From a virus, in IMG/VR virus record IMGVR_UViG_3300009503_000019, positions 1 to 64,000 of that record: a stretch of DNA of 64,000 bases; one strand, 5' to 3'. The notes below the pieces were generated by a model, which saw only the letters and a program-made list of their open reading frames with translations, was not told the origin of the DNA and made no database searches. Both the position numbers and the translations under genes were made by a program. How positions within the stretch are numbered: the first letter of the stretch is position 1; the number at the start of each line of letters is the position of its first letter. Below are positions 2,096-54,155 of the stretch, piece by piece.

Positions 2096-2104
2096 TGATA
2101 TAAT
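2096..2104 (+). promoter_or_regulatory. Extended -10 promoter of sRNA A
   Basis: TGaTATAAT; predicted TSS 2111. Confidence 0.6.
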
Positions 2105-2110
2105 GAAGTT

Positions 2111-2170
2111 AGCTTCCATATCCTTTCCTTCCCATAACCTCATCTTAGGGGGGAAACTCCCCCCTATTGA
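2111..2170 (+). ncRNA. Putative anti-SD small RNA A
   Basis: C/U-rich 35 nt with CAU+CCUUUCCUUCC and CAU+ACCUC modules, then hairpin TAGGGGGGA-aac-TCCCCCCTA (2146-2166). Confidence 0.55.
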
Positions 2171-7976: not shown

Positions 7977-8818
7977 GATATAGAATAGGAGAACAGATTA
8001 TTATTTTCACTACATTATATAATGAACAGGGAAATGTTGTAACTGGTGCAACTATAACTGCGGAGATGGAAAAACCTAATGGTGTATCTGCGGGACCATT
8101 TTTGTCAACAGAAAGTTCATCATTTCCTGGAATTTATAAAATTGAAATTCCGTCTCAAGAATTAGATCAATTAGGCAATTACATAGTTAGAACTCTGTCA
8201 ACGGGTTATTCACCAGAATTTACAACATTTTTCCTGGGACAAAGTGGTGGTGGAGGAGGTGGTGGTATAGGTGCATATAAATTATCAATTGATTGTAAAG
8301 ATCAATATAATCATATTATTTCTGATGCCTTAGTCTCAATAAGAATTGGAAATACAATAATATCTTCGTTGTTAACTGATGTATCAGGACATGCTGAATT
8401 TAATTTAGAAGCCGGAACTTATAATGTTTTAGTTTACAAAGCAGGATATTCATTTGAAAAATATACATTTACAATAAATAATGATGTAACCGCAACAATT
8501 ACCGGCAGCATTCTTTCATTACCTCCCGCAGAAAATCCCGAGTTATGCCGAGTATATATAAGAACAGTAGATTTGGGTTTAGGAGCAGTATCCGGGGTTG
8601 AAATCAATATTAATTATGACGTCCCTGAAGAAATCGGTACTAATTTAGGAATAGATAAATGGACAAAAGTTATTACAGACAATAATGGAGTTGCATATTT
8701 CGACGCGCCTAAAGGAAGCAATGTGTTGGTGCGTGTACATAAAGCTAGTGTTAATGTTAAAGTGAAAATACCTGATAAAGATTCAGTTTATTTGACTGAT
8801 TTATTTGAATTTACATGA
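7973..8818 (+). CDS. Virion protein with Ig/prealbumin-like domains
   Basis: Beta-rich domains separated by a poly-Gly linker; GTYNVLVYKAGY motif. Confidence 0.55.
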   Translation: MRYRIGEQIIIFTTLYNEQGNVVTGATITAEMEKPNGVSAGPFLSTESSSFPGIYKIEIPSQELDQLGNYIVRTLSTGYSPEFTTFFLGQSGGGGGGGIGAYKLSIDCKDQYNHIISDALVSIRIGNTIISSLLTDVSGHAEFNLEAGTYNVLVYKAGYSFEKYTFTINNDVTATITGSILSLPPAENPELCRVYIRTVDLGLGAVSGVEININYDVPEEIGTNLGIDKWTKVITDNNGVAYFDAPKGSNVLVRVHKASVNVKVKIPDKDSVYLTDLFEFT

Positions 8819-8838: not shown

Positions 8839-8900
8839 AACCTTCATACTTACCTCCTTACCATATCCCTTCCTCATGGGGAGAGCATTTGCTCTCCCTT
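8839..8900 (+). ncRNA. Putative anti-SD small RNA B
   Basis: Contains CAU-ACUU-ACCUCCUUA (16S 3'-end-like) and CAU-AU-CCCUUCCU, then hairpin GGGAGAGC-attt-GCTCTCCC (8879-8898). Confidence 0.6.
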
Positions 8901-8927: not shown

Positions 8928-9476
8928 ATGGTAAAAAAAATATTCCCAGTAATACTATTTTATTTATGCATAATTTTCCTTATGAAAATATTCTTTGATT
9001 ATAGATTAGTAGAAAAAAAAGAAAATAATTATAATAAAATTTGTTCAATTGAAGAAGAAAGATTTGATCCGATACAATATGATTCAAGATTTAATTTTAT
9101 TGATGATATAAATTATAGAAATGCTATTTTTCATTATGGTAAGAATCTATCTTATTATATAAATGATCCATATGGATTTTTAATTGCATTGTCATGTGTA
9201 GAAAGTTCATTCGGGAAAAATCAATATGGCAAAGATGGAGAAAAAGGACTTTTTCAAATACATCCTTACTGGAAGAGAGTTTATAATTTAGAAGAAATGT
9301 ATCTAGAAAACCCTGAAATTAATGTATATATTGCCGTTGATATTTTAACAAAATTATTCAAAACATATGGAGATCCTTTTATTGTATTAAATGTGTATAA
9401 CACTGGAAATAATAAGAAAAAAAATAAAAAATATATAAATAGATTTCTTGAATGTTATACAAAAATAAATTTTTAA
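8928..9476 (+). CDS. Lytic transglycosylase (SLT) with N-terminal signal-anchor
   Basis: VESS catalytic Glu, GLFQI, YNTG motifs; hydrophobic N-terminus. Confidence 0.85.
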   Translation: MVKKIFPVILFYLCIIFLMKIFFDYRLVEKKENNYNKICSIEEERFDPIQYDSRFNFIDDINYRNAIFHYGKNLSYYINDPYGFLIALSCVESSFGKNQYGKDGEKGLFQIHPYWKRVYNLEEMYLENPEINVYIAVDILTKLFKTYGDPFIVLNVYNTGNNKKKNKKYINRFLECYTKINF

Positions 9477-24128: not shown

Positions 24129-24656
24129 TTATTCTAATTCTTTTTTCAACTCATCCAATGCTTCAAGTCCATCGGGGACATCTTCAAAATCTTTTTCTTC
24201 ACCATTTTCAAGTACAATTCGGATTCCTTCGGTTGGATTTCCGTAAGTTCGTCCAGTTCTTTTCCATTTATATTTCAAGACACTTCCTTTTGGAATAGTT
24301 ACCAATGCTCCATGGGAAATTCCACAATTCCCCCGTGGACTTTCATAAACACGATATTCACATATTTGTTCAACTTGAGGTTCTAATATTTTGAATGATG
24401 AACTCCCACGGTATCCACATTGAACAAAGATATTATGAGTGATATGATTTTCGGACGGCTTTAGTATAAGAGATCCTTTTTCTGTTTTTATAATCATTGC
24501 GTTCATCGGAAATTCGATTATGTCTTTTTCATCTTTTTTCTTAATGAGCTTGTGACTGACCCATAGACGAAAAGATTTTCGTCCATGGTCCTCAGAGCCG
24601 ACATCTACATAGGGAAATTTCTCCCCGGCCTCATTTTGTTTGTAGTTCACTATCAT
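24129..24656 (-). CDS. Hypothetical protein
   Basis: Own promoter, structured leader, AAGGAGG RBS and terminator. Confidence 0.75.
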   Translation of the reverse strand: MIVNYKQNEAGEKFPYVDVGSEDHGRKSFRLWVSHKLIKKKDEKDIIEFPMNAMIIKTEKGSLILKPSENHITHNIFVQCGYRGSSSFKILEPQVEQICEYRVYESPRGNCGISHGALVTIPKGSVLKYKWKRTGRTYGNPTEGIRIVLENGEEKDFEDVPDGLEALDELKKELE

Positions 24657-24739
24657 TTTTACCTCCTTTTTCCCCCATTGCGCATGGGATTAGAACCCTT
24701 CGCGTGGGGGAAATAATTTTGTATTTTCATTACAATTAA

Positions 24740-30927: not shown

Positions 30928-32781
30928 ATGCTGTTTTTTGATTTAAAATATGATATTGGAATCCCATCTGGTTTAGAACCATCTTTTGAAATTGAGAAGA
31001 CATTAAAGGTTTCTAATATCAAAGATATATTTAAACATATAAACTATTTTTCGAACAATGATGGATTTTTAGCATCTATAATCTTTAAACTTGCTCTCTA
31101 TCCAACAACAGATATTGTTGTTCAACCAGAGAATGACGCAACTGCAAAAATTATAAAGGATTTATTTTATGATGTTTTCGATATAAAGACTATTATTTTG
31201 AATGCATTAATTAGTTATTACATGTATGGGAATTTATTTGTTTCCATATTACCTGCTCGCAAAAGGCATTTTAAGTGCAAACAATGTAATCAAGATTTAG
31301 ATATAAATGATATTCCAATGATTAAATATGCGAAGAAGCAAAAATTTTATGGGATTTGCCCAAAGTGTAATACACGAGTTAATTTTGATGTTTATGATGA
31401 ATTAGACCGATCTGTAGAGAAAATGACTATAAAAATCTGGAATCCTATAGATATAGAATTAAATGATGATGGTTTTGGATATGTAGAAATTTATCACACA
31501 ATTTCTGCAACTCTGAAGAATAAGATTTCCAGAGCTGCAGAAGAAATAGTTTCATATGATCCATCTAAACCACCTCAATTGTCGCCAATGAGACATACAA
31601 AGACTATTTTAAAAAATATTCCATTAGAATTTCTTGATGCTGCAGTTAATGATGTATGGGTTAAATTTCATCCATCTAATATTTTCTTTAAAGCACGTCC
31701 CTCAGATTTAAACTGGATAGATCAGCCGTGGGGAATGCCATTACCTCGTCCTGCATTGAGTGATTTATGGTCATATAATTATCTAAAAAAATTATTGAAT
31801 TATGTTGCAAAAGAGAGAACATTTCTTCGTCGTATTGTATTCCCACAACCATCCGGTTCTGGGGATCCCGCAGAATTAATTAATCTTGCACGTTTCAAAT
31901 CAGAAATTCAGCAGGCGTGGCAGATGTGGAAGTATTATCCTGAAATTTTAAAATTCTTACCATTTCCAATAGGGATTCAGCATATTGGAGGAGAAGAATT
32001 ACAAATTCCTATTGTAGAATTGATGGATGCATTAGAAAAAAGGATTATTCGTGTTATGAATGTTCCTCTTGAATTTGCATACGGAGGTGCTGGCTTTACA
32101 TGGTCTGGAACGAGTGTAGGAATAAGAATGCTGGAAAATCTATTTACTAATGCTCGATTTGTTGCAATATCGTTATTAAAATTCATATTGCAAAAGATGC
32201 AAGATATTTATCAAATTGATACACAGAAACTAAATATCAGATTTACAGATATGAAAACTGCAGATGATTTAGCACGAACCAGATTACTATTTGAACTTGC
32301 ACAAGGAAATAGAATATCATGGTCAACACTTTTAAGAGAGGTTGGTTTAAATTATGAAGAAGAAATGAAAACATTAAAAAAAGATACCGAATTGTTTGCA
32401 GAATTTATGGCAGCATCTGCATTGGCTGAGGCACATGCCCAAAGAGAAGCACAAAAGACTTTAGCAACAACTCCTCTATATCAACAAATGATGCAACAAA
32501 TAGTAGCGGCTGGATTATCTATACCTTCTGACGAGGCAATTTCTCTTCCACCTCCAGTATTAGAGTTTTTGGGTCAAATAATGCAATTAGCACCGGCAGA
32601 ACAAGAATATATATTAAGAATGATGGAAAAAAAGATGCCTACTCTTGTTAAATATACGAGGAAAATTTTAGAAAAAATAAAACTGAGAGCCCCCTCCCCT
32701 CCACAAAGCGAGGAGGGCACAGAAGAATCTTTGCCTGAAGAAAAACCCCCACGGCGTGAGGGGGAAAAGAAACTTATTTAG
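30928..32781 (+). CDS. Probable portal protein with CxxC/CxxC insertion
   Basis: Size; PWGMPLPRPAL clip/stem-like region; helical C-terminus; genomic context. Confidence 0.65.
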   Translation: MLFFDLKYDIGIPSGLEPSFEIEKTLKVSNIKDIFKHINYFSNNDGFLASIIFKLALYPTTDIVVQPENDATAKIIKDLFYDVFDIKTIILNALISYYMYGNLFVSILPARKRHFKCKQCNQDLDINDIPMIKYAKKQKFYGICPKCNTRVNFDVYDELDRSVEKMTIKIWNPIDIELNDDGFGYVEIYHTISATLKNKISRAAEEIVSYDPSKPPQLSPMRHTKTILKNIPLEFLDAAVNDVWVKFHPSNIFFKARPSDLNWIDQPWGMPLPRPALSDLWSYNYLKKLLNYVAKERTFLRRIVFPQPSGSGDPAELINLARFKSEIQQAWQMWKYYPEILKFLPFPIGIQHIGGEELQIPIVELMDALEKRIIRVMNVPLEFAYGGAGFTWSGTSVGIRMLENLFTNARFVAISLLKFILQKMQDIYQIDTQKLNIRFTDMKTADDLARTRLLFELAQGNRISWSTLLREVGLNYEEEMKTLKKDTELFAEFMAASALAEAHAQREAQKTLATTPLYQQMMQQIVAAGLSIPSDEAISLPPPVLEFLGQIMQLAPAEQEYILRMMEKKMPTLVKYTRKILEKIKLRAPSPPQSEEGTEESLPEEKPPRREGEKKLI

Positions 32782-38542: not shown

Positions 38543-41500
38543 ATGCTGAAAGGGTATATTGAAGCTATTCAGAATCTCTTTCCCATTGATTCCCCAAATT
38601 ATACAATTAATGTATCTAATATAACGCCTAAGATCAAAGAAGATGTTTTTATTCCTGAGAATATAAAAAAAATGAAATTGGAAGGAAAGATTTTGACTAC
38701 TCCTATATATGCAGATGTTACAATTACTGACAAAAATGGTAAAGTTATTAGTTCCAGGAAACAGATGAAGATTGCAGAAATACCTGCACTTATTCCTGCA
38801 ACAAATTCTTATCTTGGAGGTAAAGGTAAAGAAATTACTATATTGGGTCAATTTAGATTCAAGCCAGGAATTTATACTATAATTCCATCTTCTGGTAATG
38901 TTAAAACAACTTTTCATTTAAAAGGTACGAGTTTTCATCTGACAAGCGATGCAGGAAAATTATATTTCACTGTAGATTCAAAACATTTCGCTATCTATCC
39001 AATATTAAAATTTTTTGGTATTACTGATAATGATATTATTAATAATTTTGGAAATAAATTTTTAGAGGATAATAAAATAGATATTTCTCCTGCAGAAATG
39101 GAAAGATTGATAAAGAGATTTTACAAAAATATTTCAAGAGATCAACGTTCCGAAGATGAGATTAGTATCAATGATATTATAACATATTTTTCAGGTAATA
39201 TTTTTGATCCGAATGTAAACAAAGTCACATTAGGTCAGGATTTTTCTCAATTAAATAAAGAAACATTATTAGCAGCTATTAAGAAATTTTTAAATGTTTC
39301 TACTGGAGTTGAACCACCAGATTCAAAAGATTTATTAATATTTAAAAGATTTCATAATGTAAATGATTTTATTAAAGAACGTATAGAAGGTCTTAAATGG
39401 CAATTAAAAAAGAAAATTCAGCGAAATCTTGAATTACATCCAGAGGAGATTCGCCGGGTTTTACCTACTGGATTATTGTCTAAACCATCGTTTGAATTAT
39501 TGAATTCTTCAGTAGCGTCTATGGAAAAATATACTAATCCCGCATCAATATTATCGGCAATGACGAAAATGACTTATCTTGGGGAAGGAGGATTACAGAC
39601 TGAATATGCCGCTACACCAGAAATGCGAAATTTCAATTTTTCTATGCTTTCAACCTTAGATCCTATACAAATGCCAGAGTCTGAGAAAATTGGGTTAGTT
39701 TTTCATGCTGCTTTGGGTGCTAATGTAGATAATCAAGGTAATATAACTAAAATTGTTTTCAATCATAAAACTGGAAAATATGAAACAATAAGTGGAACTG
39801 ATTTCTGGATAAAAAATATTGCTTTTCCTGATCAATATGAAAACGGTAAATTCAAGAATCCAAATTCAGTTAAAGTTATGAATGAAGGTAAAATAAAATA
39901 TGTAAAATCTAAAGATGTAGATTATATTCTTCCTATGAGTACTTCTTTTTCAATGCTTAGTTCGTTAATTCCAATGATTTCATCATTCCATCCTACAAGA
40001 GCTTTAATTGCTTCTAAAATGATTGGGCAAGCTTTGGCATTAAAGAATAAAGAAGCGCCTTTAGTTCAAAGTGAGATCCCTTCAGAATTATTAGAAATCA
40101 GGAAACAATTACATCCTGAATTGACTGGTGCCTTATCTGATCATTTAGAACATTCTAATTCCTTTGAAGAATTATTAGGTGCAAAATATTCTGTTGTTTC
40201 CCCAGTTAATGGAACGGTTACGTTAGTATCCAAAGATGAAATTGTCATTACTGATAAAAAAGGAGAAAAATACAGATTTCCTCTATATAATAATTTTCCC
40301 GTATATCCAGATTCTTTTATTCATCAGGAGCCTATAGTAAAAGTTGGTGATAAAGTTTCAAAAGGGATGCCATTAGCTAAAAGTAATTTTACTGATGGTA
40401 AAACATTAGCATTAGGTACTAATTTATTAACGGCTTATATACCTTTTAAAGGGTATAATTATGAAGATGCTATAGTTATATCAGAGAGTGCATCAAAAAA
40501 ATTGACTTCAGAAAGAATTATACATGAATATTTTGAAATTCGAGAGGGTATGATTCTTGATAAAAATAAATTTAGAGCAATTTTTCCAACATTATTATTA
40601 GAAGAAAATGCACGCAAATTAGATGATGATGGTGTAGTCAAAAAAGGAGCAATTGTTAAAAAAGGAGAAATTTTAATTGCGGCATTAATGCCTCGTATTA
40701 TAACTCCAGATGAATATCAACTTATGCGTATACACAGGAAATTAGTGCCTAAGTATCGTGATGCTTCATTAGTATGGAATAGGGAGAACGACGGAGAAGT
40801 TATAGAAGTGCGCAAAACAAGACATTCAATAAGTTTATTAATAAAAACATCAGATCCTGCTGAGATTGGTGATAAATTGGTAGGACGATTTGGTGAAAAA
40901 GGGCTCATTGCTTATATAGTTCCAGATAGTGAAATGCCAAGAACTAAAGATGGAAAGGTAATTGATGTCATTTTTAATCCATTAAGTGTTATTTCAAGAA
41001 TTAATACTGGACAATTAGTAGAACTTGCATTAGGTAAAGTTGCTCAGAAACAAGGAAAACCAATTTATGTTCCTTTATTCACAAAACAAAATTATGTAGA
41101 ATATGCAAAAAAATTATTGAAAGATCATGGATTATCCGACACCGAAACATTAATTGATCCAAAAACTGGAAAAGAAATACCTAATGTGATGGTTGGTCCA
41201 AAATATATATTTAAATTGGAACATGAGATTAAAGATAAATTAGATGCTCGTTACAAAGGTTCTTACGATATGGATTTAGCACCTGCTAGACAAGGAGAAG
41301 AAGGGGCAAAAGCATTAGATACTTATACTGCATATGGATTATTTGCACATGGAGCACTAGCAAATTTAAAAGAAATGGCAACATATAAAGCAGAGAAGAA
41401 TGATGCATTCTGGGATGCAATTGAAAATGGTTTTATGTTGCCAGCACCTAAACCTACATTTGCAATGGATAAATTTTTAGCAATGTTAAAATCTGCAGGG

Positions 41501-44500
41501 ATAAATGTTGAAAAACAAGGTACAACTTTTAGATTATTACCCCTAACTGATAAAGATGTCACTGAAATTGCAAAAATAAAAATAGAAAATCCGAGGACGG
41601 TATCTGGTGCAGAATTAAAACCCGAAAAAGGAGGTTTATTTGACCCGGCATTAGGAGGATTAACAGGAACACGCTGGGGATATATTCAATTAGCTGAACC
41701 GATGCCAAATCCTATCGTAGAAAAAGCATTATTACAAATATTACAATTAAGTTCTGCTCAATTTGAAGATTTGATTGCTGGTAAAACTGTTAATGGTATT
41801 CAAGGAATAGAAGGATTAAAACAATACTTAAAAAATTTAGATATTGATAAATTAATTACTCAGTATCAAGAAATGGCAAAGAATGCTCGTTTAGATGAAT
41901 TGGATAAATATAATAGAATAATAAGATTTTTAAAAGGACTAAAAGAAGCTAAAATAAAACCAGAATCATTAATAATAACAAAAATACCAGTAATTCCACC
42001 AAAAATGAGACCTATTTATGTGAAAGATGATCAGGTTATTTATTCTCCATTTAATGACTTGTATAAGCATTTATTGATGGCAAATGAATTATTAGAAAGA
42101 ACAAAAGAACTTCCTGAAGAACATCGTGCTTCTATACGATTAAAAGCTTATGAAGCCTTAAAAGCTATTGCAGGATTAACTGACCCCATTTCACCTGCAT
42201 TTTCAAAACGGCCTGTTCAAGGAATTTTATCAATGATTGCAGGTCCAACTCCTAAATTAGGATATTTTCAGTCTAAACTTGCACGTAAAGAGCAAGATTT
42301 AGTAGGAAGAACTGCAATTATTCCAGAACCAGATTTACATCCTGATGAAGTTGGATTGCCGTATGAGATTGCATGGAAGATATTTGAACCATTTGTTATT
42401 CGTAAACTTATTCAGCAAGGATATACAAAAATTCAAGCTGTTAAGAATGTAGAAGATAGAACTCCTATAGCAAAAGCTGCATTAGAAGCAGTTGCAAAAG
42501 AAAGATTAGTTTTATTAAATAGAGCACCAAGTTTGCATAAATATAATATACTTGCATTCAAACCCAGACTCATTGAAGGAAATGCAATGAAAATACCTCC
42601 ATTAGTTGTTGTTGGCTTTAATGCTGATTTTGATGGCGATGAGCAGCTAGGGTCGATATTGATTTCAGTTAAAAAAGATTTTAAATTACAGAAATGGTAT
42701 TTAGATTTGATAAAAACTGGGGCCAGAATAATGTTCGATAAAAATGCGAAAATACCCATTAAATCAGATCGTGAATATTTTATTATTAATCTTGCGGATT
42801 TTCCGAGACTTCATTTAGTAGCTTCTAAAAATCATATAGATTTTTATGCAGTTCCAGACGATATTGAAGTACTGGCATACGACGAGAAAATTCATACGAT
42901 TTCATGGCAAAAAGCGACTTCATGGTCGTTACATCATAAAAGAAAAATTTGTTTTATCAATTTGAAATCAGGCAAACAAATTGTGTCTGATGATGATCCA
43001 AGGGCAGTTTATGGGATAGATCCAGTTACATTAGAATACGGACGGTGGAGACCTGCAGAAAGTATTGGTAAATTAGTGCCGGTTGTAAAAAATTTGAAAT
43101 TGCAAGAATATGTAAAGCAAATAAGCACCAAAGGTTGTCCTTACTGGAAATTGAAGAATTGTCTAAAAGAAACAATAGAATTGAATGAGGAATTTGGTTA
43201 CTTACTTGGTTATATTATAGGCGACGGCTGGATATCTTATACAAAAGACGAAGAAAAAAATGTAAGCATTGCTATTGATCCAAAAAATTCAGAGCTCAAA
43301 AAACATTTGATTTCAATAACGAAAAAACTTTTCAATAAAAAATATAATCTCATTAGTGAACAAAAAGTATCAAAATCAAAGTGGCAATCTTCCAAAATAA
43401 CAATCAATTCCAAACAACTTGCATGGTTAATTTCTCCATGGATTGGTAAAAATGCAGAAAATAAACATTTACCTCCATTTACATTAATTTCTCCGGAAGA
43501 ATTCAGACGAGGATTATTAGCTGGTTTAATTGATTCAGATGGTAGCATCTCAATCTCTCATGCTAAGTCCAAACCACAATTACTTATAAATTTATCAACT
43601 GCAAGCATACGACTGGCACAGGAAATACAATTGCTAGCAAAAAGTTTAGGAATCCCTGCTTCTATAACTGCATATAATGGTGGAATGAAAAATAGCAAAA
43701 ATTATATGATTAATTTTTCTAATTATCATTTCCAGAAAGCTAATTTGAATATTAAACATCCTGAAAAAAGAAGAAAATTGTTATCAATTTCGATTGAATC
43801 TTCTCCTGGTTTGATGTCTCATGATTTAGTTCCATTTAATTCAACACTGGCGGAAATTATTATGAAACGAATAAATCGCAATAAAGAATGGAGTTTGTAT
43901 GTAATAGTGCAGAGGTATAAAAATTTGAATTATATAACTCGTTCTTCAGCATTAAAAATTCTAAAAATTGTTGATAATGATGATCCATTATTTTTGAGAT
44001 GGAAGCAGATTGTATTGAATGATTCAATAACATGGGATCCCGTAGTTTCTTATGAACAAACTGATATTGAAGAAGATGGTTATGATATCACCGTTCCAGG
44101 ATACGAAACATTTATGAACATTGAAGGAGTGATTTTATCAAACACAATGACTATTCATACTCCTGTAACTCAGGAAGCATTAGAAGAAGCACGTAGACTT
44201 TTGCCTTCAAATAACTGGGTACATGAAGCAAAAGGGACTATATTATTGATGCCACGTCATGAGGCAATTATTGGAATCTACAGATTGACTTCTGAAGGAC
44301 GCCAATTGAATATTACTTTCAACAATGAAAAGGAAGTGGAGGATGCTTATAAAGCAAATAAGATAAATTTCAATGATATTGTCAATGTCAAGGGAATAGG
44401 CAGGACGTCGTTTGGAAGAATAATTGTTAATAAAGTTTTACCTCCTGAATTGAGAGATTATAAATCTCAAATTGATGGTTCCAAATTACATGACATATTG

Positions 44501-46039
44501 ATGAAAATTTTTAGACGAGACCAAAAATTAGGAACTGATATTTCACATTATCTTGACAAAATAGGTAAAGAATTTGCATACTTATCTGGATATAGTTTAA
44601 GTTTGGATGATATAACACCAATTGATTTATCTGATATAAATCGTAAAATCAGAGAAACTATGCCGAAATTATCTTCTGATAAAGAAAGGCAAAAATTTTT
44701 ATCAGAATTAGCAGATAAAATAGATCAAAGGGTAATGTCTTCTAAAAGCCGATTAGTAGAGGCAATTAAATCTCGTGCAAGAGGAAAAGTTATTGATGCT
44801 AGACAAATTATAGGTGCACCTATTGTTGCAACTGATATTAATGACAATATTATACCCGCTCCTGTGAATACCAGTTATGCAGCAGGAATGTCTTTTTCAG
44901 ATTGGTTTAAATCAATATTTGGAGGAAGAAAAGCGGCAATAGATAAAGTAACTTCAGTGAGTGAACCTGGGATGATGACTAAAGAATTATTTTCAGCAAT
45001 GTCTTCATTTCGTATAGTAGAGCATGATTGCGGAACTAAAAATGGTGTTGAAATGGATTTAAATGAAGCGGATGCGTTAGATTATTGTTTAGCAGAAAAT
45101 ATTTATTCTCATGGAAGATTAATAGCAAAAAGGAATTCACCATTAACTTCAGATGTTGTAAATGCCTTAGTTGCACACAAAATAAATAGAGTTAAAGTTA
45201 GAACACCATTAACATGTGAATCCATAGATGGAGTTTGTCAATTATGTTATGGATTGGATAAATTCGGGCAATTTCCATCAATTGGAGAATATGTTGGAAT
45301 TAAAGCTGCACAATATATAGGCGAGCCGATGACACAATTAATTCTTTCAAGAGCCCATTTTGGTGGAACCAAAGGTGCACCATCATTACAGGGATATAAA
45401 TTATTTGAAAACATATTAAATTTTTCACCTTCAATTCGTCCTCGTGCAACACTTGCTAAATTAGATGGGAGAGTTCAAAAAATTTTGATTAATCCGGACG
45501 GATCTAAAGATGTGTTAATAGATGGAGTTAGTCATCCTGTTTCAAGAGAAAGTGTGGTTACAGTTAAAACTGGAGAAATTGTAAAAAAAGGACAACAAAT
45601 TTCAGAAGGAATTCCGCATCCTGTAGATGTATATGCTACTAGAGGGATGATGGAAATGAGAAAATATTTGTCAGAGCAATTAAGAAAAATATATTATGAT
45701 AATGGACTTAAAGTGGATAAAAGAATGTTTGATGTATTGGCAAAGGCTATGACAAATACCGGAATTATTACTGATCCTGGTGATTCTGATTATATAATAG
45801 GAGATAAAGTTTCAATAGATAAAATAGAAAATAAAAATAAAGAATTGAAGCACCCAATAAAATATACACCTGTTTTTCGTGGATTGCCCCATCAAGTCTT
45901 GCTTTCAACAGATTGGTTGAATAGAATTTCAAGAAAGGATATAAAAAATACATTGGTAGAAGGAACGATTAGGCAGTGGACTGGAGATATTTCAAGGTAT
46001 CCAATACCTGCATTCGCTTATGGAGTTGAGCTAAAGTGA
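38543..46039 (+). CDS. rpoBC: Fused beta-beta' multi-subunit-type RNA polymerase, intein-containing
   Basis: Beta motifs: GYNYEDAI, GDKLVGRFGEKG, NPLSVISRIN. Beta' motifs: LNRAPSLH, NADFDGD, bridge helix, GEPMTQL trigger loop, C-terminal Zn Cys. Junction at about 41510. Confidence 0.97.
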   Translation: MLKGYIEAIQNLFPIDSPNYTINVSNITPKIKEDVFIPENIKKMKLEGKILTTPIYADVTITDKNGKVISSRKQMKIAEIPALIPATNSYLGGKGKEITILGQFRFKPGIYTIIPSSGNVKTTFHLKGTSFHLTSDAGKLYFTVDSKHFAIYPILKFFGITDNDIINNFGNKFLEDNKIDISPAEMERLIKRFYKNISRDQRSEDEISINDIITYFSGNIFDPNVNKVTLGQDFSQLNKETLLAAIKKFLNVSTGVEPPDSKDLLIFKRFHNVNDFIKERIEGLKWQLKKKIQRNLELHPEEIRRVLPTGLLSKPSFELLNSSVASMEKYTNPASILSAMTKMTYLGEGGLQTEYAATPEMRNFNFSMLSTLDPIQMPESEKIGLVFHAALGANVDNQGNITKIVFNHKTGKYETISGTDFWIKNIAFPDQYENGKFKNPNSVKVMNEGKIKYVKSKDVDYILPMSTSFSMLSSLIPMISSFHPTRALIASKMIGQALALKNKEAPLVQSEIPSELLEIRKQLHPELTGALSDHLEHSNSFEELLGAKYSVVSPVNGTVTLVSKDEIVITDKKGEKYRFPLYNNFPVYPDSFIHQEPIVKVGDKVSKGMPLAKSNFTDGKTLALGTNLLTAYIPFKGYNYEDAIVISESASKKLTSERIIHEYFEIREGMILDKNKFRAIFPTLLLEENARKLDDDGVVKKGAIVKKGEILIAALMPRIITPDEYQLMRIHRKLVPKYRDASLVWNRENDGEVIEVRKTRHSISLLIKTSDPAEIGDKLVGRFGEKGLIAYIVPDSEMPRTKDGKVIDVIFNPLSVISRINTGQLVELALGKVAQKQGKPIYVPLFTKQNYVEYAKKLLKDHGLSDTETLIDPKTGKEIPNVMVGPKYIFKLEHEIKDKLDARYKGSYDMDLAPARQGEEGAKALDTYTAYGLFAHGALANLKEMATYKAEKNDAFWDAIENGFMLPAPKPTFAMDKFLAMLKSAGINVEKQGTTFRLLPLTDKDVTEIAKIKIENPRTVSGAELKPEKGGLFDPALGGLTGTRWGYIQLAEPMPNPIVEKALLQILQLSSAQFEDLIAGKTVNGIQGIEGLKQYLKNLDIDKLITQYQEMAKNARLDELDKYNRIIRFLKGLKEAKIKPESLIITKIPVIPPKMRPIYVKDDQVIYSPFNDLYKHLLMANELLERTKELPEEHRASIRLKAYEALKAIAGLTDPISPAFSKRPVQGILSMIAGPTPKLGYFQSKLARKEQDLVGRTAIIPEPDLHPDEVGLPYEIAWKIFEPFVIRKLIQQGYTKIQAVKNVEDRTPIAKAALEAVAKERLVLLNRAPSLHKYNILAFKPRLIEGNAMKIPPLVVVGFNADFDGDEQLGSILISVKKDFKLQKWYLDLIKTGARIMFDKNAKIPIKSDREYFIINLADFPRLHLVASKNHIDFYAVPDDIEVLAYDEKIHTISWQKATSWSLHHKRKICFINLKSGKQIVSDDDPRAVYGIDPVTLEYGRWRPAESIGKLVPVVKNLKLQEYVKQISTKGCPYWKLKNCLKETIELNEEFGYLLGYIIGDGWISYTKDEEKNVSIAIDPKNSELKKHLISITKKLFNKKYNLISEQKVSKSKWQSSKITINSKQLAWLISPWIGKNAENKHLPPFTLISPEEFRRGLLAGLIDSDGSISISHAKSKPQLLINLSTASIRLAQEIQLLAKSLGIPASITAYNGGMKNSKNYMINFSNYHFQKANLNIKHPEKRRKLLSISIESSPGLMSHDLVPFNSTLAEIIMKRINRNKEWSLYVIVQRYKNLNYITRSSALKILKIVDNDDPLFLRWKQIVLNDSITWDPVVSYEQTDIEEDGYDITVPGYETFMNIEGVILSNTMTIHTPVTQEALEEARRLLPSNNWVHEAKGTILLMPRHEAIIGIYRLTSEGRQLNITFNNEKEVEDAYKANKINFNDIVNVKGIGRTSFGRIIVNKVLPPELRDYKSQIDGSKLHDILMKIFRRDQKLGTDISHYLDKIGKEFAYLSGYSLSLDDITPIDLSDINRKIRETMPKLSSDKERQKFLSELADKIDQRVMSSKSRLVEAIKSRARGKVIDARQIIGAPIVATDINDNIIPAPVNTSYAAGMSFSDWFKSIFGGRKAAIDKVTSVSEPGMMTKELFSAMSSFRIVEHDCGTKNGVEMDLNEADALDYCLAENIYSHGRLIAKRNSPLTSDVVNALVAHKINRVKVRTPLTCESIDGVCQLCYGLDKFGQFPSIGEYVGIKAAQYIGEPMTQLILSRAHFGGTKGAPSLQGYKLFENILNFSPSIRPRATLAKLDGRVQKILINPDGSKDVLIDGVSHPVSRESVVTVKTGEIVKKGQQISEGIPHPVDVYATRGMMEMRKYLSEQLRKIYYDNGLKVDKRMFDVLAKAMTNTGIITDPGDSDYIIGDKVSIDKIENKNKELKHPIKYTPVFRGLPHQVLLSTDWLNRISRKDIKNTLVEGTIRQWTGDISRYPIPAFAYGVELK
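42641..44143 (+). mobile_element. 501-aa intein with LAGLIDADG homing endonuclease
   Basis: Removing it restores NADFDGD-TMTIH. Contains YLLGYIIGDG and LLAGLIDSDG; ends YDITVPG...ILSN/T. Confidence 0.9.
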
Positions 46040-46506
46040 TTGTATGTAAAAATTATACTATAGTTTCTGGTGTTGGTAGAGATGAAGATGAACTTGTTGC
46101 ATTTGATAAAGCATTAAAAAGTGCAGGATTGCATAGATTTAATTTAGTGCCTGTTTCAAGTGTGTTTCCTACTTTAGCTGAATATCATCCGCCAAGAGAT
46201 TTGAAGGAACTTGATCGTGGGGCAATCATTCATGTTGTTTTGAGTAAAATAAATGTGAAAAAAGAATTTGTAGATATATCGGCAGGAATTTGTTTAGCAA
46301 TTTCCAAAATAAGTGGTGGAGGGATCATAAGTGAATATTCGGGAGAAGTAAATAAGGAAAAATGTAAATCTATTCTAAGGGAAAGAGCCAATAAAATTGC
46401 AGAAACTCACGATCTTTTTGATATGACTATGGAATTTGAAATAATGAGTGCAAAATCTAATCCTGTAACTTATACTTGTTGTATAGCGGCAGTAGTTTTA
46501 TGGTGA
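46036..46506 (+). CDS. pdaD: Pyruvoyl-dependent arginine decarboxylase
   Basis: AFDKAL..AG...FNLVPVSSVFP self-cleavage motif; GTGA overlap with the RNAP stop. Confidence 0.88.
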   Translation: MIVCKNYTIVSGVGRDEDELVAFDKALKSAGLHRFNLVPVSSVFPTLAEYHPPRDLKELDRGAIIHVVLSKINVKKEFVDISAGICLAISKISGGGIISEYSGEVNKEKCKSILRERANKIAETHDLFDMTMEFEIMSAKSNPVTYTCCIAAVVLW

Positions 46507-47910: not shown

Positions 47911-49902
47911 ATGTTAAAGACAAGTGAAAATTTTTATCAACTTTCAGATGATCCTTCATCATGGATTCCAGAGATTTCTCATATTTTTTCAGAACAGTTC
48001 CCGGAATTAGCAGAATTTGGTGCAGAAGTTAAGCTTTCTAAAGTAAATCCTGAAATTGGATTTGCTTTAGGCAGTATAACGATATTTTCTGATGTTGATG
48101 AAGTTCATATTCCTATTGTTATTCGTGAAAAAAAATTAGCTCCATTTGATATATTTGAGTATAAAAAAACTTATTATCCACTAAAGTCTTCAAAAATTAT
48201 AAATATACTGTATGCAGGTAAATTAGGATCACCTGTTGCTGCAATTCCTACCGAACGAGCAACACAACCGACAATGCTCGGTGAAATAATGCCACCTCCT
48301 TTCGGCTTGGGACCGCGCGCTGAATATTATACTGAAGTTAGGAGTTTGCCTAAAGGGGCATCATCATTATTTTTATCAATTTCAAAATCAACTTTTAGTG
48401 AAGAAGTAAAAAAAGCATATGACAAATTTATAAAAATAGCTCAATCATTGTCTTTGGTAGATACGGTTAGAACAATTTTAGACAAAATTTTATCTTTACA
48501 GAGTGGAATTGTTTCAGCAAAGAGTTATTTGAAAAATGAAATACGCCGGGTTCGTAGAAATGCATTTTTAATTAAAAAAATAGGACCAGATCAATATCAG
48601 ATTATTTTTAATCCAATCAACGAAATTTCCATGTCTTCTGCTGTAGTTAATTCAGATGGAATTATAAAATTATTAACTGCATTGAAATATGATATTCCTA
48701 CCGCATTTACAGATTTAGATTCTGGAAAAGTTATTTATTTTTCGCCTGAAATGCAACAATTAGTTCCTATTATACTCGAAAAAATAGATGGTCAACCTGT
48801 AATTAGTCCAGGAAAATATGTATTTATTACAGCTAATGGCAAAATTATTAGAGGATTGGTTATTAAAAATCTTTTTGGTGGTTGGATGTTATGGTCCGAT
48901 CCTTATGCAATATCAGATTCTTTATATGGTGTGAAAGAATCTGATTATATTGAAAAAACTCCATTTGTAGATGAATGTTCTCCAGGACAGACAATTTTAT
49001 TACGAATCATTTCTTGTAATAACTCTATAGGATTGGGTCCAATTAAAGTCTTCAGAGTTATTTCAAAAAGAGCTTCCTGTGAAGCAAAGCCTGTGATGAA
49101 ACTTGAAAATGCAGAATTTCCAAAGCTTATTGGTAAGATTTTGACGATAACTGGTAAATATGGAGATTTTCCAATAAAGATAGAAATTAGCCCCTTTAAA
49201 AATGAGAATAAAATAATTAATTTACAAAAAAGTGCAATAGGCGAAATAGAAATTACAATTTGTGGAGCACCTGTTGATATACTTCCTGTAACTTATGAAG
49301 TTACTTTACCAACTAACGAGCAGGAATTCTATGATTATTTGTCATTGTTCAAACGACCTGTTAATGTTGAATATCTTGGTGATGAAACTTATATGATTGC
49401 AAGTAATGGTGAAAAATATAAAGTTGATGGAACAGACAAATTAGTTTTATCATTGATATCAATGACAATACCAAAAGAGAGTGCTATGAAAATTGCTTCT
49501 GCAACCAAAACGGTTAGGAAATTAACACTTCTTGGTCCAAGTTTAACGAATAAAAAAGAAATTCCATTAGAAAAGATAGGAGTATCAAGTCAAAAGATAA
49601 AAGATATTCTTGGGATATCCGATGATTTAATAAAATCCGCAATTGTATCAAGAGAAGGATTAACAATTGATACTGTATTTTCTTTAAATTTAATAACACC
49701 ACAGAATATTCAAAAATTTATTGAATCCGTGCCTATAATCAGAGAAACCGTGAATCATCTTGCAAAATTACTTATATTTTCAAGATTAGGTTTCAAAGAA
49801 TTTTCAGAAGAAGATTTATCTTACTTAATGAAAAAATTAGATGAAATTGCTGATAAATTAGAATCATTAAAAATAATCTATAAATTAAAATCAATGGCAT
49901 AA
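47911..49902 (+). CDS. Large hypothetical protein (probable head-associated)
   Basis: 663 aa; several KxA motifs (KGASS, KIASA, KSAI). Confidence 0.7.
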   Translation: MLKTSENFYQLSDDPSSWIPEISHIFSEQFPELAEFGAEVKLSKVNPEIGFALGSITIFSDVDEVHIPIVIREKKLAPFDIFEYKKTYYPLKSSKIINILYAGKLGSPVAAIPTERATQPTMLGEIMPPPFGLGPRAEYYTEVRSLPKGASSLFLSISKSTFSEEVKKAYDKFIKIAQSLSLVDTVRTILDKILSLQSGIVSAKSYLKNEIRRVRRNAFLIKKIGPDQYQIIFNPINEISMSSAVVNSDGIIKLLTALKYDIPTAFTDLDSGKVIYFSPEMQQLVPIILEKIDGQPVISPGKYVFITANGKIIRGLVIKNLFGGWMLWSDPYAISDSLYGVKESDYIEKTPFVDECSPGQTILLRIISCNNSIGLGPIKVFRVISKRASCEAKPVMKLENAEFPKLIGKILTITGKYGDFPIKIEISPFKNENKIINLQKSAIGEIEITICGAPVDILPVTYEVTLPTNEQEFYDYLSLFKRPVNVEYLGDETYMIASNGEKYKVDGTDKLVLSLISMTIPKESAMKIASATKTVRKLTLLGPSLTNKKEIPLEKIGVSSQKIKDILGISDDLIKSAIVSREGLTIDTVFSLNLITPQNIQKFIESVPIIRETVNHLAKLLIFSRLGFKEFSEEDLSYLMKKLDEIADKLESLKIIYKLKSMA

Positions 49903-49908
49903 ACATAG

Positions 49909-49937
49909 TTGAAAAAATTATGAGGTTTTATTAAAAT
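49909..49937 (+). promoter_or_regulatory. Sigma70-type promoter of sRNA C
   Basis: TTGAAA-17-TAAAAT; predicted TSS 49944; no ORF downstream on this strand. Confidence 0.65.
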
Positions 49938-49943
49938 GTTTTC

Positions 49944-50013
49944 AGCCCATGCCCTTCTCTTCCTCCTCCATACACGCCTCCTGCAGGAGGGAGACAACAA
50001 TCTCCCTCCTGAT
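49944..50013 (+). ncRNA. Putative anti-SD small RNA C
   Basis: CAU-GCCCUUCUCUUCCUCCUC and CAU-ACACG-CCUCCUG, then an 11-bp hairpin at 49984-50011. Confidence 0.6.
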
Positions 50014-50026
50014 AAATTTGTTTAAT

Positions 50027-50386
50027 TTATCCTCCTTTTACTACTGTTCTAATAAAAGTTTGTGTTCCTCTTAATGGTCGAAATGGTACTGGTTCAGGAT
50101 ATCTTTCAATTATTTTTATTGGATAAAAATACAATTTATTCGGGAATCCCCACCATTTCATTGCTTCTTCTTGTGTGACTTTATGAATTGCTCTTAATTT
50201 TTCAAATTCTTTTCTTGATATCAATTTTGGTTCTTGTAATGAAATAATTCCCAGTATTCCTTCCGGTCCAACAAGTGCTAATGGAATATTTATCATTTTT
50301 GGATAATATCTTTTCTTCAGTAAAGCTTTTTTCTTTTGTTCAATTATCCATTGTGCGTGTGGAGAGATTATATATATTCCACGCAT
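50027..50386 (-). CDS. ASCH/PUA-like domain protein
   Basis: GIYIISPHAQWI..KKK...GILGII.L motif. Confidence 0.6.
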   Translation of the reverse strand: MRGIYIISPHAQWIIEQKKKALLKKRYYPKMINIPLALVGPEGILGIISLQEPKLISRKEFEKLRAIHKVTQEEAMKWWGFPNKLYFYPIKIIERYPEPVPFRPLRGTQTFIRTVVKGG

Positions 50387-50392
50387 GAAGGA

Positions 50393-50421
50393 ATTTTAGA
50401 AAAAATTGTTATAATATTCAA
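50393..50421 (-). promoter_or_regulatory. Sigma70-type promoter, leaderless ASCH mRNA
   Basis: TTGAAT-17-TAAAAT; ATG 7 nt after the -10. Confidence 0.65.
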
Positions 50422-50470
50422 TGTTAAGAAATTTTTGAAAAAAAAGAAAAAAATAAGTTTTTAACTTTTA

Positions 50471-50553
50471 TGCGTCGGCTCCCCCCGCCGTCTCTTCCTT
50501 ATCACCTCTCTTGGGCTTATACCCATTGGAGCGGCCGCAGGGAGCCGAACGCA
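50471..50553 (-). ncRNA. GC-rich structured RNA D
   Basis: 13-bp closing stem (one bulge), inner stems, U.G pair favouring the minus strand; purine loop GAGAGGUGAUAAGGAAGAG. Confidence 0.6.
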
Positions 50554-50597
50554 AAAATCTTTCCAATATACTTATAACATTTTTTAAGGAGAAAAAA

Positions 50598-51212
50598 ATG
50601 AACAAAGAATTGGTAAAAATTCAAAATGAATTAAATAGAGCGATGTATATATCTGATGACGAATTTGAAAAGAAATATATGGAATTTATAAATAACTTAT
50701 TAAAGATAAAAACTTTGGTTTATAAAATATATAATTTATTTCGGCATCGTTTTGTAGATAGACCGGGTTATATTTTTCCATGGTCTGGTAGAATAAATTT
50801 TAAAAAAACATATTATAGATTTAATATTCTTGATACAGTTGATAACTTAGAAATTGATATGTTAATAAATTTAACTTCTAATTTGTTATGGGGTATAAAA
50901 AGAATTTGTATAAAAAAAACACACGATATTATAGAAGTGCTTCAATCAAATTTTGATTTACCAATTGATATTAATATCAGATTAACTAAAAAAGGTAATT
51001 ATAATGTTTATTTTTACTGTCTAGTTTGGGATGAAAATTTTACTAATTGTCATTATGTTTCTATAAAATATTTAGATCAAAAAAATAAATTGTATTTAAA
51101 ATATAGAAACGAGATTGAATTCATAGCACATTATATTTTCTTAAGACTATGTGATACAAAATTGAAATTTATAATTGATACATTGAAGAATGATTTTAAG
51201 GGATTTTTATGA
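50598..51212 (+). CDS. QxxINxxIF-family early protein
   Basis: Start moved to MNKELVKIQNELNRAMY after AAGGAG. Confidence 0.65.
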   Translation: MNKELVKIQNELNRAMYISDDEFEKKYMEFINNLLKIKTLVYKIYNLFRHRFVDRPGYIFPWSGRINFKKTYYRFNILDTVDNLEIDMLINLTSNLLWGIKRICIKKTHDIIEVLQSNFDLPIDINIRLTKKGNYNVYFYCLVWDENFTNCHYVSIKYLDQKNKLYLKYRNEIEFIAHYIFLRLCDTKLKFIIDTLKNDFKGFL

Positions 51213-51841: not shown

Positions 51842-52621
51842 ATGAAATTACCATTTAGAAGATTTCTTGCTGCACTTATTGTTGATAGCCCTAATGATAT
51901 TAATTTGATCAAACGTATTCTTAGTGAATGCGGAATATTTATAACAGATAATGACGATATTTTAAGTTTCAGAGCTCGCATATTCAATAAATTCAAGCGT
52001 ATTCCTAAAAATAAGAATTTGACATTTAAGAAATTGGGTTTAACAGAATATTTAGAAAATAAAGAAAAAGGTAATATAGATTTTCTTGGGGCATATTTTG
52101 CACAAAAAGATCAATTTTTGAGAAAAGCATTTCAAGCATATATTTTTACTCATAACGAGAAATTTTTAGATTTTATTCCATCACAAAATAAAGAAACTGA
52201 AATAAATATATTTAAAAAATACTTTTTTGATATTGATAATTTATCTTTAGCAGAATGGACATATTATAAGAAATTTATTTCAGGAGCAGATGTGTTATTT
52301 TTAAATGCATTATTAAATAATGATTTGGGATTAGCCCTTCATTATCTCAAAAGGTCTATACCACCATCGGTTGAAGAGGGATTATCAAAATTATTATCAA
52401 TTTCATACTGGAGGGCAATGGAAACTGCTTATAATGCAGACCCATCTGATTTTATCAAACTATCGGACACTTTCTTAAAAATATATAAAGCATCCAAGGA
52501 CGTTTTAATTGAAAAGAAAAAAGAAACTTTACCTGATTTAATCTTTGAAGAGAAAAATCCAGAAGAAGATGAAAGGTTAGTTTCCTATGACGAACTTGGA
52601 AAACAATCAAAAACAAAGTAA
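51842..52621 (+). CDS. Hypothetical protein, candidate small terminase
   Basis: Immediately precedes and overlaps terL; helical. Confidence 0.45.
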   Translation: MKLPFRRFLAALIVDSPNDINLIKRILSECGIFITDNDDILSFRARIFNKFKRIPKNKNLTFKKLGLTEYLENKEKGNIDFLGAYFAQKDQFLRKAFQAYIFTHNEKFLDFIPSQNKETEINIFKKYFFDIDNLSLAEWTYYKKFISGADVLFLNALLNNDLGLALHYLKRSIPPSVEEGLSKLLSISYWRAMETAYNADPSDFIKLSDTFLKIYKASKDVLIEKKKETLPDLIFEEKNPEEDERLVSYDELGKQSKTK

Positions 52622-54155
52622 AATTTCTCGCGCAGATATTGCTCAAAAAATTCTTTATTTGAGAGGAAACCCATTTTCTTTGAATGAACGGCCACATTTA
52701 AAATTTATTTATGATTATGCAGATAAGGTCTGGGTCATAAAAGCAGGTAGACAGGTAGAGAAATCTACTACATTGGCAGCAATTATTCTTACAGAATCGA
52801 TAATAATTCCACATTTTAATTCTTTATATGTAACTTATTCTAATAAGCAGGTTTCTGATTTCTCTTCAGATAAGATTGTTCCTATGATATTACATTCTCC
52901 ATTTGTAAGAAATTATTATCATTCCGGTGAAGTTGTGAAAAGAGTTACAGACAGAACTTTTACAAATGGCTCACATATTTTTTTGAGATCTGCATATAAT
53001 AATCCAGAAACATTAAGAGGTATTCCTGCCGATAGAGTAGTTTTCGATGAGGTTCAGAATTTGATTCCTGAAGTTATTTATGTAGCTGAGGAATCACTTG
53101 CTCATAGCAAATATCAATGGAAGATATTTTCAGGCACGGCAAAAACGAGAAATAATCTTATAGAGACTTACTGGAATCTTTCAAAGCAAATAGAGTATAT
53201 GATTAAATGTGAAGCGTGTAATAATTGGAATTATCAGGATGAAAAAATTATAGGTAAGGATTCTTATATATGTACTAAATGTGGGAAGAAAATTGATATC
53301 AGGAATGGAAGATTTGTAATGCTTAATCCATCAGGCAAATTTATGGGAATTCGTATTACTCAAGTTATGGTTCCATGGATGACTTTTGAAAATATTAAAG
53401 AAAAATTTGAGTTAAAGCCAATGTCTTATTTTTATAATGAAGTCCTCGGACTTCCTTATGAATCAATGGAACAGCCCGTTACAGAATTAGAACTTCGTCA
53501 ATGTTGTTCCGACTACCCAATGAATCTGGATTTTGTGAAATCAATTCCTTATGAATCAATTATTGTAGGTATTGACTGGGGAATGGGATTGAATTCTTCT
53601 ACTGTTGTGACAATAGGGCATCTACATGCGGGTAAAGCTCGTGTTTTGTATGCAGTTCGTATTATGGAAACAGATGCAGTAAAGCAATATGAACAGATTA
53701 AAAATTTATTATCATATTGTAAAGCGTCTATTATAATTACTGATTTTGGTGCGGGATTTGGCTTAAATGACATGTTAAGAAGAGATTTTAATATGGTTAT
53801 TCCAGTTTTATATACAGAAGGTGGTGTGGGAAAGGTTTTAAAATGGGATACAAAAGGAAAAAAATATATTGCGTTGAGAACACCATTATTGAATATTGTT
53901 TTCAGTTCTTTAAAACGGCAGGATATCATATTTCCTAAATATGAGAATATAAAAGATTTTTTACAGGATATAATGAATGTTTATGTTGATTACAGAACAG
54001 TTAAAGGAAGAGAAATTCCATATTATACTCATAATGTGCAAGAATATGATGATTTTTTACATAGCCTTACTTATTTCTTAATTGGATGCTGGTTATATTC
54101 TGGAAAACAATATTTATTTACGTCAGTTGCGGAATTTCCAAGAGAATTTGAGTAA
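52587..54155 (+). CDS. terL: Terminase large subunit
   Basis: KAGRQVEKST (Walker A region), VVFDEVQ (Walker B), CEAC..CTKC, nuclease GIDWG...DFG...DDFLHS. Confidence 0.92.
   Translation: MTNLENNQKQSKISRADIAQKILYLRGNPFSLNERPHLKFIYDYADKVWVIKAGRQVEKSTTLAAIILTESIIIPHFNSLYVTYSNKQVSDFSSDKIVPMILHSPFVRNYYHSGEVVKRVTDRTFTNGSHIFLRSAYNNPETLRGIPADRVVFDEVQNLIPEVIYVAEESLAHSKYQWKIFSGTAKTRNNLIETYWNLSKQIEYMIKCEACNNWNYQDEKIIGKDSYICTKCGKKIDIRNGRFVMLNPSGKFMGIRITQVMVPWMTFENIKEKFELKPMSYFYNEVLGLPYESMEQPVTELELRQCCSDYPMNLDFVKSIPYESIIVGIDWGMGLNSSTVVTIGHLHAGKARVLYAVRIMETDAVKQYEQIKNLLSYCKASIIITDFGAGFGLNDMLRRDFNMVIPVLYTEGGVGKVLKWDTKGKKYIALRTPLLNIVFSSLKRQDIIFPKYENIKDFLQDIMNVYVDYRTVKGREIPYYTHNVQEYDDFLHSLTYFLIGCWLYSGKQYLFTSVAEFPREFE

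Follow-up and report, generated by a model that had tools for sequence, protein, structure and literature searches.

A predicted family of CU-rich small RNA genes in a hot-spring phage, with a possible role in pairing with ribosome-binding sites

The window analysed here is a stretch of 64,000 nucleotides that forms the first part of a viral genome of 121,041 bp with a GC content of 29.7%. The source virus is a tailed phage, and a profile search places its large terminase gene at 52587-54155 (phrog_675, E 1e-73; Pfam GpA_ATPase). In a search of sequencing runs, which matched four DNA runs and no RNA run, near-identical DNA was confined to hot-spring metagenomes. An open reading frame (ORF) of 2498 aa at 38543-46039 encodes a multisubunit RNA polymerase in which beta and beta' are fused and which carries a LAGLIDADG intein, a call made from the Pfam matches of a homologue that is 90% identical. 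In the related lineage represented by contig L005, the fused polymerase is 1995 aa long and intein matches are absent. Just after the polymerase gene, at 46036-46506, lies a homologue of pyruvoyl-dependent arginine decarboxylase (from Pfam matches on homologues in contig L001, a closer relative). The product of the ORF at 1370-2071 is sigma-like, its match to sigma-70 region 3 being weak and below threshold. A search of species genomes with the RNA polymerase returned nothing, or cellular rpoC alone at 24-29% identity; single-protein searches of IMG/VR with the 663-aa, 119-aa and large terminase (TerL) proteins found no relatives, and a metagenome protein search with a 402-aa gene found no match. 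Over the window there was no tRNA and, in Rfam 15 at gathering thresholds, no Rfam family; across 49850-50650 the Rfam matches were at chance level only (E 0.3-5, far below gathering).

Many of the genes that come first in an operon are leaderless in this phage, with an ATG 6-9 nt past a canonical -10 box and without a Shine-Dalgarno (SD) sequence. The canonical phage promoter reads TTGAC(A/T)-17-TA(T/A)AAT, its -10 box ending 6-8 nt ahead of the first ATG in the operon, and 6 nt is the modal gap between the -10 box and the A of a leaderless ATG. The leaderless genes of the phage therefore mark sites where transcription starts. Internal genes are SD-led, and AAGGAG or AGGAGG is found in about half of 103 SD-led starts. 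Several structured elements of other kinds were seen in the genome. A GC-rich hairpin on the minus strand (24660-24713) lies directly 5' of the SD of the minus-strand gene 24129-24656, and constitutes a structured 5' leader of a type other than the CU-rich units described below. A 96-nt GC-rich structured element at 50467-50562, with a z of about -5 on both strands and no Rfam match, is kept in the relative that is 86% identical (L001 8656-8745), where its closing stem shows two compensatory pairs (GGCUCCC/GGGAGCC versus GGGACCC/GGGUCCC); this element includes AUCACCUCUCUU, a near-match to the 16S 3' end. Elsewhere in the genome there is a tRNA-Leu(UAA) of 59% GC at 83143-83228, and a 169-nt GC-rich tRNA-like element at 115720-115888, which ARAGORN calls, doubtfully, as tRNA-Gly with a 47-nt intron.

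The unit that is the subject of this report, unit C, follows the gene for a 663-aa protein at the end of the RNA-polymerase operon and has no plus-strand gene downstream (Table 1). A sequence-only reading of the locus had described a TTGAAA-17-TAAAAT promoter, a hairpin and a palindrome here, and all three are present, letter for letter. Six nucleotides (gttttc) separate the TAAAAT box from A49944, where the 5' end of the predicted RNA is placed from promoter spacing. The GC island to which the unit belongs (49942-50013) is one of only a dozen patches of at least 60% GC in the genome. When the hairpin is viewed as a candidate intrinsic terminator, the GC stem is there and the U-run is not: the tail that follows the stem, AUAAAUUUGUUU, fails the U-tract rule and is not scored as terminator-like.

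Table 1. Coordinates of the features at and around unit C, of its paralogues and of promoters of leaderless genes
Feature	Position	Strand	Remarks
663-aa gene	47911..49902	+	last gene of the RNA-polymerase operon; unit C follows it
Sigma-70-type promoter, TTGAAA-17-TAAAAT	49909..49937	+	TTGAAA 49909-49914, TAAAAT 49932-49937
CU-rich, G-poor 5' domain	49944..49983	+	40 nt: C 20, U 11, A 5, G 4; three CCUCC
Conserved core CAUACACGCCUCCU	49969-49982	+	retained in L001, L005 and the X3/X4 variants
Perfect 14-nt palindrome CCTCCTGCAGGAGG	49977..49990	.	junction of the last CCUCC and the 5' arm of the hairpin
GC hairpin of 11 bp	49984..50011	+	purine-rich 5' arm, 6-nt loop; -20.4 kcal/mol, z -3.7 versus shuffles
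A/U-rich tail AUAAAUUUGUUUAAUUUAU	50012..50030	+	weak terminator tail at best
119-aa gene	50027..50386	-	leaderless, convergent; PUA-like/ASCH-like fold (predicted)
Unit A	2102..2166	+	extended -10 TGaTATAAT, 35-nt CU-rich domain, 9-bp hairpin
Unit B	8840..8899	+	38-nt G-free CU-rich domain with ACCUCCUU, 9-bp hairpin
Leaderless-gene promoters (examples)	2167, 33069, 47874, 54158, 64108, 75627, 105489; 50421 (-)		-10 box 6-9 nt before the ATG

It had also been claimed that no ORF lies downstream of the promoter. A plus-strand ORF of 41 codons does open at 49949, and on the minus strand a strong SD (AGGAGG-5-AUG) precedes a 9-codon ORF, MEEEEKGMG. Neither of these is retained in L001, at 86% identity, or in L005, such that the claim is correct for conserved ORFs and incorrect for ORFs as such. 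Both mini-ORFs were rejected because they lack conservation in the relatives, and since ORFs are conserved on neither strand we regard unit C as non-coding.

Promoter-like hexamers by themselves carry no weight in this DNA. Such hexamer pairs are common in AT-rich DNA (45 observed versus 34 expected in 5.5 kb), and good TTGnnn-16/18-TAnnnT sites number 139 in 242 kb, counting both strands, or about one per 1.7 kb of strand. At the level of sequence, the promoter of unit C is of the same class as the phage's own gene promoters, and the C-rich stretch of the unit starts at the modal leaderless spacing, 6 nt past the -10 box. The whole genome was searched for 36-nt stretches with no more than 3 G and at least 12 C that were followed by a perfect GC hairpin of at least 8 bp. 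Exactly three units made up of promoter, CU-rich stretch and hairpin were found in the 121 kb, all of them on the plus strand: units A and B (Table 1) and unit C at 49944-50011. The same search returned zero units in fifteen dinucleotide-shuffled genomes. Units A, B and C account for three of the eight strongest hairpins of the genome (stem of at least 8 bp with at least 6 G-C pairs), and in each of them a -10 or extended -10 box (TGnTATAAT at units A and B) lies 5-7 nt before the A that opens the CU-rich stretch, a placement with a chance expectation of about 0.003 per unit. A pattern search of metagenomes with the hairpin only gave 80 unrelated matches, of which 0 had a CU-rich flank; the stem sequence alone is therefore generic. 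Note that a GC island at 32678-32731 of the window resembles the 5' end of an extra unit that is found in L001 (8036-8120, see below).

Unit B has a feature of its own. Its hairpin is followed by an A-rich tail and has no U-tract, and when the segment 8840-8945 is folded, the CU-rich part of the unit (UUACCAUAUCCCUUCCUC) base-pairs with both the SD and the AUG of the following gene, which begins at 8928 (MFE of unit B together with the start of gene 8928, -28.9 kcal/mol; z -4.4). Unit B probably doubles as the 5' leader of gene 8928, and may mask the ribosome-binding site of its own gene, instead of or besides being a free small RNA. Given this pairing, at least one member of the family plausibly masks a translation start, in cis.

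Homologues of the 663-aa protein were found at 86%, 69% and 31% identity, and those at 86% and 69% carry a unit directly 3' of the gene. In the 86% lineage (L001-L004), this consists of TTGATT-17-TATAAT, six bases, an A and then a G-free CU-rich stretch of 41 nt with two CCUCC; the L001 hairpin is CAGGAGGGAG/CUCCCUCCUG, and no U-run is found past the stem. In the 69% lineage (L005-L008) there are two units. The first, E1, is a CU-rich stretch that starts straight after the stop codon, without a promoter of its own, and that ends in L005 in CAUCACACCUCCUCC and a 13-bp hairpin with one bulge, the distal half of which is wholly different yet paired. The second, E2, lies 3' of E1 and has the layout of a textbook small RNA gene, with TTGACT-17-TAAAAT, a CU-rich stretch of 38 nt, a 9-bp stem and U7. 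The promoters of the L001 unit and of E2 lie at the same distance from the first A as that of unit C. One further unit was found in a more distant phage contig (L016), directly after a stop codon and again without its own promoter. The family as treated here thus has seven members (A, B, C, L001, L005 E1, L005 E2 and L016), five of which are preceded by well-placed promoters. In all seven the 5' arm of the hairpin is the purine-rich arm; the 3' flanks vary among the members. Note that L001 also has an extra unit at 8036-8120, between its 664-aa gene and the orthologue of unit C, that is absent from the window; it comprises TTGACA-18-TAAATT, a structured GC-rich RNA and a T8 run.

At the four-fold sites of the flanking gene, identity between the lineages is down to 45-47%, which is near saturation. 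Across this distance the overall layout persists, as do the core, (A)CAC(G)CCUCCU, and the stem base, and the distal stem differs compensatorily between unit C and L005. Unit C is thus kept in position and architecture in two related phage lineages. At shorter range the picture is one of rapid change. A variant from a hot-spring run of 2025 (X3) is about 98% identical, and of the 12 letters that differ over 439 nt, at least 10 are within the RNA. Small deletions in a (UCC)n run have removed two of the three CCUCC from this variant, G49976A turns the core into CACACCUCC, which matches the other lineages, the change A49992G leaves a G.U pair in place, and a CTG is duplicated behind the stem. The indels that separate the window from X3 across 49965-50008 are of the slippage type, and the segment could be a mutational hot spot or a fast-evolving seed. 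As judged from these alignments, long-term constraint is strong on composition, core and hairpin, with little on the exact 5' sequence.

The sequence-only reading had proposed that the palindrome serves as a built-in switch, in which the second anti-SD element could pair alternatively with the 5' arm of the hairpin. In the minimum free energy (MFE) fold of the full-length RNA, a free 5' domain is followed by a terminal hairpin in 7/7 members, and in the ensemble the 5' domain of unit C is 95-98% unpaired from 37 to 75 C. At 37 C the palindrome hairpin comes to -7.9 kcal/mol and the terminal hairpin to -20.4 kcal/mol; at 75 C the two values are -1.9 and -8.2 kcal/mol. Moreover, pairing between the 5' domain and the G-rich arm never beats that of composition-matched shuffles in any of the seven members (z -1.3 to +1.7), and does not even reach the shuffle mean in units A, B and E1. 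Neither L001 (CCUCCU-C-AGGAGG) nor L005 has the perfect palindrome, and an inserted C breaks it in the variant that is about 98% identical. Thus, with an alternative fold that is weak and no better than shuffles, and a palindrome that is lost in the relatives, the proposed switch finds no support; two comparable, conserved and mutually exclusive folds, as a bistable switch calls for, are not seen in unit C. The palindrome is best seen as a by-product of CCUCC abutting a stem that contains GGAGG.

The 3' end of 16S rRNA carries the anti-Shine-Dalgarno sequence (...AUCACCUCCUUUCU-3' in the general bacterial consensus). The anti-SD-like core is CACCUCCU in L001, L005 and the X3 variant and CACGCCUCCU in the window, and the identity between the consensus tail, which may differ from that of the host, and both the core of unit C and ACCUCCUU of unit B extends over 6-8 nt. 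Cores identical to the anti-SD tail would therefore bind the mRNA sites that the ribosome itself recognises, with the difference that unit C is predicted to be a free RNA of about 68 nt and is not part of the ribosome. We compared the pairing of the units to the 103 SD-led phage starts with that of 60 composition-matched shuffles. For unit C in its native order the mean was -14.55 kcal/mol, as against -12.06 +/- 0.83 for the shuffles, 0/60 of which reach the native value; for unit B it was -14.48 kcal/mol, as against -11.30 for the shuffles, again with 0/60 at the native value. The corresponding z scores are about -3 to -3.7 for units C and B, -1.05 (not significant) for unit A, -1.2 to -1.7 (marginal) for the orthologues and other units, and +0.4 for the L016 unit. 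The anti-SD bias is real but heterogeneous, and sits atop a composition that already favours purine-rich sites. Since the bias is marginal in the orthologues and absent in unit A and L016, composition may be what is selected. An extended trans target of unit C was not found in the phage genome besides its own antisense; an 11-nt match at 116904 was rejected as being at chance level.

The neighbouring 119-aa gene converges on unit C, and the gap between the hairpin and the stop codon of this gene is 15 nt in the window and none in L001. It had been described as an ASCH-domain gene and as the source of a possible protein partner of the RNA. Against Pfam, the 119-aa protein gave no ASCH (PF04266) match even at E<=10, and its homologues number three only, all within the same phage group. 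An AlphaFold model of medium confidence (pLDDT 65, pTM 0.59) gave as its top Foldseek matches TTHA0113 (E 6e-4, TM 0.57), YqfB, EF3133/DUF984 and ZmASCH, with YTH and EVE domains at lower ranks. Because ASCH members rank first in Foldseek, the description 'ASCH-like fold' is a reasonable one for this modelled protein, at the level of the superfamily only. The earlier description of the neighbour is thus accurate as to convergence and, at the level of fold, as to ASCH/PUA-like character, and is not borne out by a Pfam ASCH match. In the L005 lineage the homologue of the 119-aa gene lies beside a TnpB-like gene on another contig, and the 662-aa gene still has the RNA behind it; in L014 the homologue is convergent with a different gene and is without such an RNA. 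Given that the 119-aa gene is not syntenic with the RNA, no partnership is indicated, and we do not retain the suggestion of a protein partner. Note that in L010 (1145-2826; likewise L011-L013), from the 69% lineage, a 118-aa PUA-like gene adjoins a TnpB/Cas12f1-like gene across an AT-rich spacer of 230 nt, which suggests that the PUA-like gene moves with, or beside, a mobile element.

Several bacterial small RNAs offer points of comparison. LhrC1-5 of Listeria monocytogenes are multicopy and G-poor and have redundant CU-rich UCCC motifs; with these sites they bind SD regions, which are G-rich, and block initiation (PMC4132741). Like the phage units, LhrC occurs in several copies in a low-GC genome and is a G-poor, CU-rich RNA with more than one exposed C-rich site. 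Unit C shares no sequence or structure homology with LhrC, however; the C-rich sites of LhrC lie in loops, whereas those of the phage units lie in one long 5' single strand, and the motif is UCCC in LhrC and the full CCUCC/CACCUCCU in the phage-encoded unit. RoxS/RsaE and FsrA, from Bacillus and Staphylococcus, pair with G-rich SD sequences by way of C-rich regions that are single-stranded (PMC10433868). These RNAs resemble unit C in having single-stranded C-rich regions, and differ from it in being host-encoded, structured members of conserved families that are regulated by redox state or iron; unit C has no homology to them, and its layout is that of a 5' tail plus a single hairpin. The RegB endoribonuclease of phage T4 is aimed at GGAG in Shine-Dalgarno sequences and turns off a class of mRNAs. 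The resemblance between RegB and unit C is one of functional analogy only, in that RegB is a protein nuclease whereas unit C would act by RNA pairing, with no cleavage implied. Literature searches turned up no earlier account of this phage group or of phage RNAs that mimic the anti-SD.

On the evidence of promoter placement, recurrence and conservation, the segment 49909-50011 is very probably a conserved plus-strand small RNA gene, and one of a family. As a prediction of an RNA gene unit C is well supported; the mechanism that we infer for it would be of an ordinary type, and its transcription, 3' end, action in trans and targets are likewise presumed. The reading that we prefer, to which we assign a probability of roughly 0.45, is that an RNA of about 68 nt uses its exposed CU-rich domain to pair with GGAGG ribosome-binding sites and so lowers translation. 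According to this proposal, the sigma-70-type promoter would start the RNA near A49944, and a 40-nt unstructured 5' domain would be followed by a stable GC hairpin at the 3' side that would protect or end the RNA. The core, CACnCCUCCU, which resembles the 16S 3' end, would pair with purine-rich GGAGG sites in host mRNAs or in the SD-led internal genes of the phage, and the leaderless genes at the head of the phage operons would be left untouched. Because there is no plus-strand gene 3' of unit C, the RNA, if it does mask starts, would have to act in trans, or else is an orphan. By analogy, precedent for the masking of SD sequences would come from the C-rich, G-poor small RNAs of low-GC bacteria of the LhrC/RoxS/FsrA type. 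What survives of the regulated anti-SD RNA proposed earlier is a promoter-driven, non-coding unit of a family, with a CCUCC-rich single strand and SD pairing that beats shuffles; the switch and the partner do not.

A different account starts from the location of the units, every one of which lies just 3' of the stop codon of a plus-strand gene and in the same orientation. It holds that unit C is a module at the 3' end, or boundary, of the RNA-polymerase operon, with a rut-like tract for the loading of Rho and a hairpin that serves as a pause site or as a block to 3' exonucleases, and that the small RNA, if any, is a by-product. Rut sites are C-rich, G-poor and unstructured RNA; selection seemingly acts largely on composition in the units, and E1 of L005 and the L016 unit are promoterless and begin 0-7 nt past the stop. 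However, well-placed promoters precede 5/7 units, 40 nt is short for a rut site, the ordinary terminators of the phage (13571, 13669, 24080, 63362) have no CU-rich flank, and E2 of L005, which possesses both a U7 terminator and a promoter of its own, comes after E1 and not after a gene, and we consider this account unlikely, if still a serious competitor. Conservation of composition and a short core, and not of a long exact seed, would also fit a decoy, in which the CU-rich strand with its CACCUCC core titrates a host or phage protein with an affinity for pyrimidine-rich RNA or for the tail of 16S rRNA (Rho, S1, a cold-shock protein, or a KH protein such as Era). The several paralogues differ in sequence and are alike in composition, and their 5' domains are kept free of structure, to the extent that arm pairing in A, B and E1 falls below shuffles. 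Against this, the SD-pairing bias of units B and C exceeds what composition gives, a candidate binding protein was neither found nor syntenic, and the argument is purely inferential; a protein decoy seems to us unlikely, though it too is still a serious competitor.

The convergent layout, with the narrow gap in the window and none in L001, together with the missing canonical U-tract after the hairpin of unit C, is what suggests cis-antisense action or interference, whether by read-through from 49944 into the 119-aa gene, which would lower the expression of this gene, or by cutting of overlapping transcripts. Yet the RNA is retained in the L005 lineage, where the convergent gene is absent, paralogues A and B have no convergent gene, and the CU-rich domain is left unexplained, all of which makes interference quite improbable. 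That the minus strand is the functional one, as a mini-ORF or as decoy ribosome-binding sites in the 3' UTR of the 119-aa gene, is very improbable: the strong SD, the correct spacing, the AUG and the 9 codons are there, but the peptide is unconserved (MGKKSGGRKII in L001, where the second AUG is lost), units A and B lie in blocks of plus-strand genes only, and the promoters of five units are on the plus strand. Finally, unit C is found 2.6 kb upstream of the gene for the large terminase and is a GC-rich island in DNA of 30% GC, as might befit a site close to the terminase genes for packaging (cos or pac), for recombination or for the origin of replication, or simply a chance GC-rich patch. The three copies are dispersed (2.1, 8.8 and 49.9 kb) and have promoters and a strand-specific CU/GA asymmetry, and shuffles give zero units; moreover, the stem covaries, which points to an RNA and not to a DNA site. 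A cos/pac or other DNA site was rejected on account of the three dispersed, strand-asymmetric copies, and we find the DNA-level and chance explanations hardly credible.

Beyond the preferred reading, in which the ~68-nt RNA pairs with individual GGAGG sites, there is a broader and improbable version, namely that A, B, C and their relatives are abundant mimics of the 16S 3' tail that coat GGAGG sites throughout the cell or titrate a reader of the 16S tail. Were this version true, the phage would shut down SD-dependent translation and redirect ribosomes to its own leaderless genes, which would amount to an RNA-based takeover of host translation. More generally, if these units are expressed, they would represent a family of small RNAs, encoded by a phage in several copies, with a seed that in essence is the anti-Shine-Dalgarno sequence of the ribosome, and would add an RNA family without a counterpart in Rfam from an uncultured group of hot-spring viruses. 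The setting is that of a thermophilic phage with a sigma-like protein, a fused RNA polymerase and mostly leaderless operon starts, and the combination provides a testable model for how a virus may separate its own translation from SD-dependent translation.
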